Below are positions 6,001 through 9,000 of a stretch of 16,897 nucleotides of DNA, in pieces. A program made the position numbers. The stretch is from Myxococcales bacterium. Lineage in GTDB: Bacteria; Myxococcota_A; UBA9042. The stretch's first letter is position 1. Every line of letters begins with the position of its first letter. The stretch covers positions 1 through 16,897 of the forward strand of contig JBBISH010000129.1 of NCBI GenBank assembly GCA_037441385.1. The letters run 5' to 3'.

Positions 6001-9000
6001 GGGGCCTGACGCCCAGGCGCGCTGGGCCGGCGCCAAGGTGCGGGTCAAGCTGCGTGCGCCGCAAAAGCGCTGGAATCTTCCGGTATTTCTTGGGCTGAAC
6101 ATCGAGATCGGCGCTGTGCCCAAGGCCGTGGAGCAAGAAGGCTGGGCCAACGAGTTCCGGCCGTACGTGGGCTGGCGCAATCAGTGGTTGTTGTTGGCGT
6201 TCAACCCGATTTTCGGCTACGCCTTGTCGGGCAAGGACGCCTTCAAACCGGACCTTGAGCCGGCCGGCAAGGTCAGCGTGGACACCCAGCACGGCGTGGC
6301 GGTGGGCGTGGAGTACTACGCGGGCATTGGGCCGATTGGCTCGACTTTGCTGCCGATCGCGCAGCAAGAACACTTGCTGATGGGCGTGCTGGACCTGGCG
6401 GTGCCCGAGGGCTCGGCGCTGTCGGCTTGGGAAGTCAACGTGGCGGTGGGCAAATCGCTGACGCAGGCCCTGGGCGAGGACTGGCTGGTCAAGACCATCA
6501 TCGGCCGGTCGTTCTAGCCACTACGGCTGTGTCGCCGCCGGCCACGAGTAGAGCTGAGGCAGCATCGCGGTATAGCTGATAATCGGTGTGGAACCGTCGG
6601 CGCCGCCGTTGGGGCCGATGATGAACACCTTGTCTTTGGGCAGGCCCGCGGCGTAGTAGGCGCCGATGTCGGTGGTGGCGTTGCCAAAGCCGGCGTTCCA
6701 CTTGACCTTCACCGTCGTCTCTAGCTCGTTCAACAAGTCGCCCTTGAACTTCTGCACGCCTTGGACCGTGGGCATGGTCTGCGCCACATCTTCGGTCAGG
6801 AACAGCGGCCCCAGCGGAAAATCGTGCTCGGCCAACCACGTGCGCGAGTAGCGGTTGACGATCTGCGGCCGGCCCGTGATGTAGACGATGCGGTAGTCCT
6901 TCTTGCCGAATTGTTGCATGGCGGTGTTGGCGTCGGGGTACATGGCGGCCGAGGCGCCGAAGATGACGTCTTGGAACAGCTCCCAGTCGCTGGTGGTCAG
7001 CGTGCCGTCGATGTCGGTGACGATGGCTTGCATGCCGGCGGGCCACGCGGCGATCACGCCATCGGCCACGGTCTGGTCGCCCAAAAGCACCATCTTGACG
7101 CGGTAGTCGCCCGCCGGCAGCGAGGCGGGCACGTCGAAGTAGACGATGCCATTGCTGTCGGTGGACAGGGCGCCCCACTTGACCCAACCGGGGCAGGTCT
7201 GGACCCACAATTCCACGGTCTCGTCGCCCAGATCGCTGTCCAGGGTGCCGTAGGTGAAGTGGCCGCGCAGCTTGCCGGTACCGCCCAGGGGCAGGATCAG
7301 GTCGCGAATCCGGTGGTTCGGGCCGCCCTGGATGGTGACCAGCGGCGAAGCGATGCTGTGCTTCCAATCTTGCTTGGCGGGCAGGGCAAACGGGGCGTCG
7401 CAGTGACCGCCCGTGACCGTGGACGGCGGCGGCGGGCCAGTATCGTTGCCCGCATCTGCAGTTGCGTCACCTGCGCCGGAGTCGCTGGCGGCTGCGTCTG
7501 CTGCAGCGCTGTCGGCCCCACCCGCGTCACCGATGCTTGCGTCTGATGCAGCCGTGTCTGGCGCCGATGTATCCGGTGCGGCAGTATCTTGGGCGACCGT
7601 GTCCTGGGGCGCGCTGTCTTGCGCCGCGACGTCGGCGGGTTCGATGTCGGCGGCAGCAAGGTCTTGCGGTGCTTCGGCATCGGCCGACTCGGCTCCGTCT
7701 GGCGATCCGTCGGCCGTGGTCGCGCCGTCGCCGCCGCCGTCCAGGCCGCCTGCGCCGTCGGTATAGCCGGCGTCGGCCTTTTGCTGCGACTTGCTGTCGA
7801 GCGGTGGATCGCCACACGCCACCAAAAGAAGGACTGCCAGCCAAACCATGCGCATCGGGCCCTCGCGAAGGCGCGCGATTGGCCCGCGCACCGGAGCGCA
7901 GCATACTCGGCCGGGTGGCAGCGAATCCAGTGCGATTCGTCTGGCTCCCAGAGAGCACGGCCAAGACGACAGGATGGGCCAGAACATGCGGCACCATGCC
8001 GCCAAGGAAGGCGCGATGGGGTGGTTGAGCAAGCTGCTGGGGGGCACGCCGGCGCCGATGCCGGTGCGGCTGGACGACAGCAACTTTCAACAAGAAGTGC
8101 TGCGCAGCGACGTGCCGGTGCTGGTGGATTTCTGGAGCGCGACCTGTGCGCCGTGTCGGCAGCTGGAGAGCGTGATCCTGAACCTGGCGAAAGAGTACGA
8201 CGGCAAGGTCAAGATCTGCGAGGCCAACGTGGAGACGGCGGCCAAGGTGTGCAACCAGCTGGGCATTCGGTCGACGCCGACGGTGGTGTACTTTCGCCGC
8301 GGCGCCGAAGTGGAGCGGGTCATCGGCTTTCGCGGCTCGCTGTACCATCGCGACCTCATCGAGAACGAGCTGCTGAAGTAACTGGCGCGAATTGACCTGC
8401 GGTGGCGATTGTCACCAGTGCGTCTTGGCGGCGAACCCCAGCGCAGAACCATCGGCTCCCATTGGACGAGCCCCACCGCAAGCCGGTGCGGCACCAGTGG
8501 AGCAAGGCGATGGCGATGCAACGACGCGAATTCATCAAGATAACCGGGATGACGGCCCTGGGCGTGGCGGCGGCCAGCTCGGTGGTGCTGCCCAAGGCCA
8601 GCCAAGCCGCGGTGGACCCGGGCACCGACGGCGACCACACCGTGGCGACCTTCTGCGAACTGTGCTTTTGGAAGTGTGGCGTGCTGGCGCACGTCAAAGA
8701 CGGCAAAGTCACCAAGATTGTGGGCAACCCCGACCACCCGCTGTCGCGCGGGGCGCTGTGTCCGCGCGGCACCGGCGGCACCGGGCTGCTGTACGACCCC
8801 GACCGCCTGAAGAAGCCGATGATCCGCGTGGGCGAGCGCGGTCAGCAGAAGTTCAAGGAAGTGGAGTGGGGCGAGGCCCTCGATTTTGTCGCGGCCAAGC
8901 TGAAGGACATTGCGGCCAAGCACGGCCCTGAGTCGGTGGCGATGTTTGCCCACGGCTTTGGCGGCTCGTTCTTCAAGCACCTGCTGAATGCCTACGGTTC

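Follow-up and report, generated by a model that had tools for sequence, protein, structure and literature searches.

Lipins are enzymes that produce diacylglycerol; Nir/PITPNM proteins are sensors of phosphatidic acid (PA) at ER-plasma-membrane contacts. To our knowledge, the LNS2 fold is known solely from eukaryotic cytosolic lipid biology, and a literature search with most subscription journals outside its reach found no bacterial LNS2 or lipin-like protein described in any listed title or abstract. The closest described systems are the C-terminal unit of Nir2 (PDB 9JZP, 9JTZ, 9JZ1; PMC12582312) and the lipin/Pah enzymes, with Tetrahymena Pah2 as solved example (PDB 6TZY, 7LHK, 9D13-16; available parts of PMC7066176 and PMC12657724), both of which pair an Ig-like domain with a capless HAD domain. 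Our analysis shows a large bacterial family in which this Nir2/lipin-type two-domain unit comes with an export signal and an active site that is complete.

The member described here is encoded in a window of 16,897 nucleotides, the whole stretch of Myxococcales bacterium contig JBBISH010000129.1 (GCA_037441385.1) that was analysed. The gene, for a putative lipoprotein precursor of 444 aa, occupies positions 6521–7855 on the minus strand, and its limits are based on the open frame, Pfam and orthologue starts. Translation gives a stop-free frame with the N-terminus MRMVWLAVLLLVAC followed by GDPP and a stop codon at 6521–6523; orthologues with 81–91% identity share the start MR(L/M/I)(V/I)WLA. 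A signal peptide with the lipobox L-V-A-C (residues 1–14, positions 7814–7855, minus strand), read from the translation and with Cys14 aligned in relatives, is followed by an acidic low-complexity linker of 135 aa, delimited by composition (residues 15–149, positions 7409–7813, minus strand). An N-terminal extension (residues ~150–178) and an Ig-like beta-sandwich (~180–272) come next (together positions 7040–7408, minus strand; Pfam, AlphaFold2 and Nir2 superposition), and the C-terminal part is a capless HAD (LNS2) catalytic domain (residues 273–444, positions 6524–7039, minus strand; Pfam, motif conservation and fold matches). Its motif I, D-I-D-G-T-L-T, covers residues 281–287 in the translation (positions 6995–7015, minus strand), with Asp281 as putative nucleophile and Asp283 as putative general acid/base. 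A preliminary description had claimed this layout of lipobox, low-complexity linker, PITM-type beta-sandwich and LNS2 HAD domain, and it was borne out by translation, Pfam and fold. A promoter and terminator scan of positions 6300–8300 detected no candidate.

Pfam scores reproduced those given in the preliminary description, all above the gathering cut-off: PITM1-3 at 56.4 bits (residues 180–269, model 2–97 of 98, cut-off 27.7), LNS2_PITM1-3 at 87.7 bits (residues 278–414, model 1–124 of 124, cut-off 27.7) and LNS2 at 61.6 bits (residues 251–418). The PITM1-3 and LNS2_PITM1-3 models thus lie in order, near full length and each above its gathering score, as in a PITPNM-type C-terminal unit. No other Pfam domain was found in a scan of the 444 aa, so the PITP, FFAT and DDHD parts are absent. 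The linker is dominated by A (35), D (25), G (19), P (12), S (12) and T (11), with a pI of ~4, and because the family median is only 32 residues (range 1–421, n = 151), the long leash is special to the orthologue group of the window protein.

The AlphaFold2 model, built with the linker omitted, reached a pLDDT of 94.2 and a pTM of 0.92, with beta-sandwich strands at model residues 33–122 (block pLDDT 85–98) and a HAD part of ~170 residues lacking any insertion large enough for a cap domain. The best PDB sequence match was the C-terminal domain of mouse Nir2/PITPNM1 (E = 1.4e-24, residues 179–414), with Tetrahymena Pah2 at E ~5e-10, and the family profile is likewise closer to Nir2 (181 bits) than to lipins (Tt Pah2, 74 bits). 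Structure comparison gave the same picture: Foldseek matched the Nir2 C-terminal domain at E = 7.4e-25 (TM 0.74 by query, 0.83 by target), with TM values of 0.83–0.88 to the Nir2 C-terminal crystal structures, and VIA aligned 248 of 261 residues to that domain (Z 29.5, rmsd 2.4 Å, 31% identity). Tt Pah2 was matched over both domains (VIA Z 21.2, rmsd 3.3 Å, 235 residues aligned), and seven Tt Pah2 entries appeared at Z 20–21, spanning model residues 30–293. The bacterial Ig-like domain is contiguous, whereas that of lipins is split into N-Lip and C-Lip. In the model, the 30 residues preceding the bacterial Ig-like domain form coil except for one helix of 6 residues, and an amphipathic membrane-binding N-terminal helix of lipin type is absent from the translation, the linker composition and the AlphaFold2 model; a predicted lipid anchor and leash would take its place.

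HAD motifs I–IV are complete in the window protein (DIDGT at 281–285, T327, K371 and G391-N392...D396) and nearly invariant among 197 relatives, in which D281, D283 and D396 are each kept in 195, T285, T/S327, K371 and N392 each in 196, and R329 in all 197. Asp155 of Pah2 is named as the signature Mg ligand following DxDxT in the available text of PMC12657724; its equivalent D290, aligned within DIDGTLTTSD, is Asp in 184 of the 197. Lipin/Pah and the window protein have in common DxDxT, the motif II Ser/Thr, the motif III Lys, the G-N...D of motif IV and this additional aspartate (D155 = D290). With Nir2 the bacterial family shares NHR..D, F.YG, TGRP, the motif III Lys and the final Asp, but Nir2 carries S-I-D-G-S and G-S in place of the bacterial D-I-D-G-T and G-N. 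The nucleophile is lost in this Nir2 counterpart of motif I, and because of the two replacements Nir2 binds PA without hydrolysing it; the available part of PMC12419160 describes Nir proteins as lacking the catalytic Asp and one further Mg-coordinating residue. Of the two functions offered by the preliminary description, phosphatase or phosphatidate-binding protein, the former is therefore far likelier, since the HAD positions are kept in 195–197 of 197 relatives while Nir proteins are without the Asp.

The genome holds a paralogue (G000:C127:545-1519, minus strand) with 52% identity to the window protein over residues 119–444. Its sequence includes an S-L-A-A-C lipobox and SDIDGTLT, so the earlier observation that DIDGTLT is intact in both copies holds. 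The start of its 426-aa gene model, however, is probably wrong and the model overlong: the signal peptide, MKALSSAIVPVFVALASLAAC, begins at an internal ATG, which would give a protein of ~350 aa, comparable to its relative P0021 (351 aa).

Placement outside the cytoplasm, previously proposed for this protein, gains support from the whole family. By our own heuristic rather than a dedicated predictor, 160 of 164 N-terminally complete relatives (~98%) begin with a hydrophobic signal, which is lipobox-like in 126 of them, and in these the residue at +2 is most often Gly (60 of 126). The window protein begins with M-R-M, a hydrophobic run and L-V-A-C14, fitting the lipobox pattern [LVI][ASTVI][GAS]C under the same heuristic; its signal peptide is short, with 13 residues preceding Cys14, and a Cys aligns with Cys14 in 151 of 197 relatives. 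The mature protein is predicted to begin at Cys14, which would be lipidated. A pair of cysteines that co-occur also agrees with export. Of the family sequences, 147 have both Cys152 and Cys221, 13 have the first alone and 11 have neither, with a gap in 26; the pair is missing from cytosolic Nir2, which has Gln at position 221 and whose alignment stops short of position 152. Fusion partners agree too, every one seen in 11 scanned relatives being either a secreted-type hydrolase or an extracellular repeat (PF01663, of the alkaline-phosphatase superfamily, in two, Peptidase_M23 in one and DUF4215 repeats in one). The bacterial protein is thus predicted to be exported and lipid-anchored, in contrast to Nir2, whose unit is a cytosolic domain within a PITP-FFAT-DDHD protein, and to lipin, which is cytosolic or ER-associated. 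Near-invariant catalytic residues together with export signals in ~98% of relatives suggest an exported enzyme family and not a lipid sensor, and we consider an exported, active HAD phosphatase highly probable.

As the best explanation of the whole we tentatively propose, at a little under even confidence, a lipid-tethered surface HAD phosphatase acting on a PA-like substrate; its catalysis, metal, lipidation, choice of membrane and substrate are what we infer. The exported lipoprotein would be tethered to a cell-envelope membrane through an N-terminal lipid at Cys14, with the 135-residue acidic, disordered leash bearing a compact head in which, in the model, the Ig-like beta-sandwich packs on the capless HAD (LNS2) domain. 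The head would act as a Mg2+-dependent phosphomonoesterase by the standard HAD mechanism: an aspartyl-phosphate would arise from the attack of Asp281 on the phosphate, Asp283 would serve as acid/base, Thr327 and Lys371 would hold the phosphate, and Asn392, Asp396 and Asp290 the metal. The available text of PMC7066176 describes capless HADs as suited to interfacial or macromolecular substrates, and the missing cap together with the lipin/Nir2 fold makes a phosphate presented at a surface the most likely target. The leading candidate would be phosphatidate, lyso-phosphatidate (LPA) or a similar lipid phosphomonoester, converted to diacylglycerol or monoacylglycerol plus phosphate, and the role may be envelope lipid turnover or the salvage of phosphate or lipid, possibly from lysed prey, rather than signalling.

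The substrate is where the comparison with the described systems departs most from the preliminary description, which had pointed to a lipid phosphate. The lipin/Pah signature Arg269 of the G-N-R motif is, in the available text of PMC12657724, needed for PA and dispensable for a soluble substrate. This PA-recognition residue is replaced by Ala393 in the window protein (GFGNATTD, against GFGNRDTD in Pah2), and position 393 is Ala in 183 of the 197 relatives, followed by Ser (6), Glu (3) and Val (2), with neither Arg nor Lys among these four commonest residues. In Nir2, S1025, T1065, K1103, K1126 and D1127 contact the PA phosphate (PMC12582312); in a profile alignment they correspond to D281, T327, K371, T395 and D396, three of five being identical, and the K1126 position is Thr in 180 of 197 relatives as well as in the window protein. 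The docking residues R1074, R1149 and K1150 of Nir2 are likewise missing, being Tyr, Gly and Ala in the same alignment, and in the hydrophobic loop L943 is kept as Leu while V945 becomes Ser within an acidic loop; the docking surface was compared through alignments and not as a computed surface. The folded part has a net charge of −9 and a pI of 4.9 (family medians −10.5 and 5.1, n = 194), and so acidic a domain would not be drawn to anionic membranes. The lost Arg269, K1126 and docking residues and the acidic domain all count against a lipid-phosphate substrate as it had been put forward, and we regard a PA-like lipid as possible, but short of probable.

These same substitutions, and the acidic surface, suit a somewhat unlikely but serious alternative, in which the protein is a broad-specificity exported phosphomonoesterase that scavenges phosphate from soluble or polymer-bound monoesters (5'/3'-nucleotides, nucleic-acid ends, sugar phosphates) and the lipin-like fold reflects ancestry, not substrate. 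Such an enzyme would resemble the class B/C HAD acid phosphatases (HAD IIIB, PF03767), which are also exported and use a DxDxT nucleophile; class C enzymes are lipoproteins. PF03767 is passed by four of the 11 relatives scanned (43.7, 34.0, 30.2 and 27.6 bits, cut-off 27) and the HAD_PNKP threshold by one, and the HAD core alone resembles the T4 Pnkp 3'-phosphatase and GmhB (Z 14–15). The two fusions to PF01663 would fit a harvest of phosphate from diesters and then monoesters: the fused domain gives weak PDB matches to PafA, NPP and phosphonoacetate hydrolase, and PafA and NPP are general phosphate-scavenging enzymes. Together with the M23 fusion, these rare architectures would point to extracellular hydrolysis or phosphate salvage. 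Against the scavenging reading, the PF01663 fusions are found in only two of 197 relatives, and PF03767 does not match the window protein at E ≤ 0.01. The full Ig-like plus capless unit of this protein is that of the membrane-surface proteins lipin and Nir2, and differs from class B/C enzymes, whose accessory architecture is unlike it, in being capless and carrying an Ig-like domain. The entries listed by two fold searches included no class B/C structure, though a relationship may still exist. Yeast App1 (APP1_cat, PF09949), a DxDxT HAD lipid phosphatase, gives a weak match to the window protein (20.2 bits, residues 277–378) below its cut-off of 27.1, which some of the 11 scanned relatives approach or reach.

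A phosphatase for some other surface-presented envelope phosphomonoester, for instance lipid A or LPS-core phosphate, undecaprenyl phosphate, a phosphorylated polysaccharide or an exported phosphoprotein, is improbable. It would share the capless HAD, Ig-like docking domain and membrane tether with our preferred PA-like reading, and the acidic surface and missing PA-specific Arg/Lys would suit its non-PA target, but nothing points positively to any of these substrates, 80 loci show no conserved LPS, peptidoglycan or polysaccharide neighbours, and the family has members in monoderm Bacillota, which are without LPS. Most improbable of all is a non-catalytic phosphatidate binder or tether of the envelope, a sensor or anchor like the Nir2 LNS2 domain, for although no solved structure is closer than the C-terminal domain of Nir2, which binds PA, and three of its five phosphate-contact positions are kept (T1065, K1103, D1127), a binder would need none of the nearly absolutely conserved nucleophile Asp, Mg ligands and Thr285, the binding-only Nir proteins lost the nucleophile and a Mg ligand (available part of PMC12419160), K1126 and the cationic docking surface are missing, and membrane attachment would already be supplied by the predicted lipid anchor.

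Genome context offered no further pointer to the substrate. All-against-all BLASTP of the window and 80 loci, with 4,566 stop-to-stop ORFs in total, revealed no conserved operon and no conserved lipid-pathway neighbours; recurrence is limited to the LNS2 gene, present in 81 of 81 sources, and its antisense shadow. The clusters that rank behind them, none of which includes the window, hold histidine kinases in 10 loci, another HAD hydrolase in 5, M13 peptidases in 5, SDR proteins in 4 and TIG-domain proteins in 4. Among five relatives searched, the LNS2 gene has a molybdopterin oxidoreductase gene beside it in one, the same-genus genome G058. A 1460-aa ORF at positions 8087–12469 on the minus strand was considered as the upstream gene and rejected as the antisense shadow of three plus-strand genes.

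With 1,379 clusters at E ≤ 0.001, the bacterial family is both large and diverse; it occurs mainly in Myxococcota, with members also in Bdellovibrionota, Bradymonadales and monoderm Bacillota. Anaeromyxobacter, Haliangium and Sandaracinus are among the genera with hits. Of 201 genomes sampled from the phylum, 40 gave a PF24695 match, 39 of them above the cut-off, against none of 14 control genomes, a concentration in one phylum close to the 372 of 1,654 genomes claimed earlier. In other phyla, full-length PF24694 matches above 80 bits were found in 2 of 151 and 1 of 201 genomes, the seed genome included; these counts take only matches to model 1–124 above 80 bits, as the model also weakly detects other HAD proteins, and are not directly comparable with the PF24695 count. 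LNS2 clusters in the Protein Atlas were bacterial only (Myxococcota, Pseudomonadota, Planctomycetota), and the longer LNS2 proteins retrieved for a eukaryote-inclusive tree comprised P0198, a bacterial fusion, and P0199 (SAP + LNS2, 1005 aa), with no PITPNM sequence among them.

The greater closeness to Nir2 than to lipins, the size and diversity of the family in bacteria and its concentration in Myxococcota are compatible with a bolder reading that we consider unlikely as a whole, in which the bacterial proteins would be exported counterparts of the PITPNM PA sensor with catalysis intact, the animal PITPNM module would be a myxobacteria-type envelope phosphatase acquired by an animal ancestor and later turned into a pseudoenzyme, while the bacterial enzyme would be an extracytoplasmic PA/LPA phosphatase. 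As part of that same joint and doubtful reading, the long-leashed phosphatase would dismantle membrane lipid and harvest its phosphate, for example from prey.

With the bacterial family, phylogeny can be used to test where the animal module came from. The family also supplies a naturally "active" protein to set beside the Nir2 pseudoenzyme, a comparison that reveals the substitutions that turn a phosphatase into a sensor. We know of no HAD-type lipid phosphatase that acts outside the bacterial cytoplasm, and if PA or LPA is indeed the substrate, this would be, as far as we know, the first. For Myxococcota and other, partly predatory, bacteria, the family adds a class of putative envelope or surface phosphatases.

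The lipoprotein gene (window 6521–7855, minus strand) is an uninterrupted frame, and translation from the ATG at 7855 gives a protein of 444 aa. Residues 1–14, MRMVWLAVLLLVAC, hold a single basic residue, a hydrophobic run and then the lipobox L-V-A-C; orthologues with 81–91% identity to the window protein begin in the same way, which supports this start. A low-complexity linker of 135 residues (15–149; A 35, D 25, G 19, P 12, S 12, T 11; pI about 4) precedes the folded part (150–444). Pfam matches above the gathering scores covered PITM1-3 (residues 180–269, 56.4 bits), LNS2 (251–418, 61.6 bits) and the full LNS2_PITM1-3 model (278–414, 87.7 bits), with the DIDGTLT motif at residues 281–287 (window 6995–7015, minus strand). 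APP1_cat stayed under its Pfam cut-off and NCBIfam returned weak, generic HAD matches only. The preliminary description of a two-domain PITM and LNS2 lipoprotein was therefore borne out.

In an AlphaFold2 model of residues 150–444, based on a 52-sequence alignment (mean pLDDT 94.2, pTM 0.92), a beta-sandwich precedes an alpha/beta domain that leaves no space for a cap insertion. The closest structures were the C-terminal part of Nir2, the animal phosphatidate (PA) sensor PITPNM1 (Foldseek E about 1e-24, TM by target 0.83–0.88; VIA Z 29.5, rmsd 2.4 Å, 248 aligned, 31% identity), and the Tetrahymena lipin Pah2 (Foldseek E about 1e-13; VIA Z 21.2, rmsd 3.3 Å, 235 aligned), each match spanning both domains. 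Next in rank were T4 Pnkp phosphatase and GmhB (Z 14–15), which matched the HAD core only. At sequence level Nir2 scored 181 bits with the family profile, compared with 74 bits for Pah2, and the Nir2 C-terminal fold is described as essentially identical to that of lipin/Pah (PMC12582312).

Whether the protein is a phosphatase or a PA-binding protein had been left open. We aligned 197 sequences, fragments included (the query, 50 search matches, 145 further representatives and the relative P0198), and the HAD catalytic positions were near-invariant: R329 in 197/197, T285, T/S327, K371 and N392 in 196 each, D281, D283 and D396 in 195 each. D290, equivalent to the Mg ligand Asp155 of Pah2 (PMC12657724), was conserved in 184. 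Relatives failing the initial DxDG[TS] pattern carry Ala in place of Gly. In contrast, Nir2 reads S-I-D-G-S at motif I and G-S at motif IV in the profile alignment, and according to the Nir1 biosensor paper, Nir LNS2 domains are without the catalytic Asp and one further residue that coordinates Mg (PMC12419160). As a conserved nucleophile and metal ligands are needed by an enzyme but not by a binder, the family, including the window protein, is very probably an active phosphatase, judging from its sequences. The PA-binding half of the proposal fared worse, the position of Nir2 K1126 being Thr.

Arg269, a lipin/Pah signature that matters for PA and not for a soluble substrate (PMC12657724), is replaced by Ala in 183/197 bacterial sequences. 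The Nir2 residues reported to contact the PA phosphate, S1025, T1065, K1103, K1126 and D1127 (PMC12582312), align with D281, T327, K371, T395 and D396, and K1126 is lost in the bacterial family (Thr in 180/197). The cationic docking residues of Nir2, R1074, R1149 and K1150 (PMC12582312), are Tyr, Gly and Ala in the bacterial profile alignment. The folded part is acidic (net charge −9, pI 4.9; family median −10.5, pI 5.1, n = 194), and the predicted structure lacks the lipin-type amphipathic N-terminal helix, for which the lipid anchor can substitute in membrane recruitment. Neither the alignments nor the charge and the model demonstrate PA recognition. These departures speak against the lipid-phosphate substrate proposed earlier, and a PA-like lipid is a tentative assignment, though the leading candidate. 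Soluble or polymer phosphomonoesters are somewhat less likely substrates, and another envelope phosphomonoester is improbable.

The suggested location outside the cytoplasm held up across the family. Our own simple heuristic (a hydrophobic window, then a Cys whose −1 residue is small) was applied to 164 sequences, the other 33 being N-terminally incomplete. It found a lipobox-like N-terminus in 126; in 34 the N-terminal segment was hydrophobic but no Cys of this kind followed (a Sec-type signal or an anchor), and four had no N-terminal hydrophobic signal. Signal peptides also occur in monoderm Bacillota members, and export is, on these predictions, a trait of the whole family. Fused domains point in the same direction: in P0198 and P0152 (about 965 aa) a lipobox and the beta-sandwich plus LNS2 unit are followed by a PF01663 alkaline-phosphatase-superfamily domain with weak PDB matches to PafA, NPP and phosphonoacetate hydrolase, while the unit is joined to Peptidase_M23 in P0129 (778 aa) and to DUF4215 Cys-rich repeats in P0025. 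Such fusions are rare among the relatives. Cys152 and Cys221 co-occur in 147 of the 197 sequences (first alone 13, neither 11, gap 26), from which we infer a putative disulfide; Nir2 has Gln at the position of Cys221.

A second copy lies at C127:545–1519 (minus strand) of the same genome, with 52% identity to the window protein over residues 119–444. It contains ALASLAAC and SDIDGTLT, so that the intact motif and lipobox reported for both copies stand, whereas the reported 426-aa gene model probably has a mis-called start. That model puts the lipobox about 95 residues from the N-terminus and its additional upstream portion is translated through a hexamer tandem repeat; an internal ATG gives a protein of 350 aa beginning MKALSSAIVPVFVALASLAAC, comparable to the relative P0021 (351 aa). 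The repeat itself (CAGGTT, C127 1706–1794, 14.8 copies, 86% matches), read as HLHLHLNLNL... in the longer model, lies 112 bp upstream of the likely start and could be a length-variable promoter element. Five further genomic matches were rejected as copies, being low-complexity linker matches. A FastTree built from 83 domain sequences (midpoint-rooted, with local SH-like support only) places the two copies in sister subclades within one seven-row clade; each has nearer relatives in other genomes, hence the duplication predates these genomes.

The lipoprotein gene stands alone. Downstream and convergent, with 3 bases between the stop codons, 5711–6517 (plus strand) encodes 268 aa that start with a signal peptide (...AAWA|ID), end in Phe and have no Pfam or NCBIfam match; the product is possibly a small outer-membrane beta-barrel. 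Further along, 2813–5656 (plus strand) encodes a 947-aa protein in which a signal peptide is combined with a CHAP peptidoglycan-hydrolase domain (57 bits), CGNGxCDxGENC Cys-rich repeats and a weak C-terminal MYXO-CTERM match (17.3 bits, cut-off 20). On the other side, a 1460-aa frame at 8087–12469 (minus strand) could pass for a giant upstream gene to a gene caller or reader; it is R/A/Q/H-rich, matches nothing in Pfam at a threshold as lenient as E 5, and was rejected as the antisense shadow of three plus-strand genes. These encode a PhsA/PsrA-like molybdopterin oxidoreductase with a twin-arginine-like signal (8402–10708), a 4Fe-4S subunit (10718–11263) and an NrfD/PsrC-like membrane subunit (11276–12229), and are followed on the same strand by a YeeE/Sulf_transp transporter (12481–13959) and an ExtM-like multihaem cytochrome (14033–15793; 211 bits to NF040943, far under the 800-bit cut-off). 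This set is of respiratory type and resembles a locus for the reduction of sulfur or selenium oxyanions; it diverges from the lipoprotein gene and has no evident link to it. When 80 loci that carry a relative were compared, each neighbour family was confined to 10 loci or fewer and none was shared with the window. A second, unrelated HAD hydrolase (PF00702) lies within a few kb of the LNS2 gene in five Polyangia-type loci (L045, L057, L089, L091 and one more), and an M13 (neprilysin-type) peptidase is near it in five loci.

An exhaustive representative search gave 1,379 clusters of relatives at E ≤ 0.001, of which 586 stayed at ≤ 1e-10 and 161 at ≤ 1e-30. Within the phylum, PF24695 was present in 40/201 sampled genomes, against none of 14 control genomes; strong full-length PF24694 matches occurred in 2/151 and 1/201 genomes, seeds included, of two other phyla selected for already holding a member. 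Of the 598 pattern-matched stretches in genome_contigs, 184 were found to code for a relative. Judged by their titles, most of the best 80 belong to Myxococcota, the others being Bacteriovoracia, Bradymonadales, Planctomycetota, a spirochaete, an Alcanivoracaceae bin and three Bacillota. By submitter labels and midpoint root, the non-Myxococcota rows nest within Myxococcota-dominated clades of the tree, which is no proof of transfer. The window gene's closest relatives in genome_contigs (L020 and L021, 63% and 59% identity) come from bins titled Enterobacteriaceae and Klebsiella pneumoniae; the tree groups both with the window gene and Myxococcota-type rows, and the labels look doubtful.

Some members are already named “LNS2 domain-containing protein” by Pfam and NCBI, an automatic assignment. 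Among the titles and abstracts listed by our full-text literature searches, none dealt with a bacterial LNS2 or lipin-like protein, and the words “bacteria” and “prokaryot” were absent from the structure papers queried. What is new is the reading of these proteins as a bacterial sister family of the Nir2 PA sensor that is large, exported by prediction and intact in its catalytic residues. Its distinguishing features are the lipid anchor with its leash, the Cys pair, the acidic surface and the Ala that takes the place of the lipin Arg.
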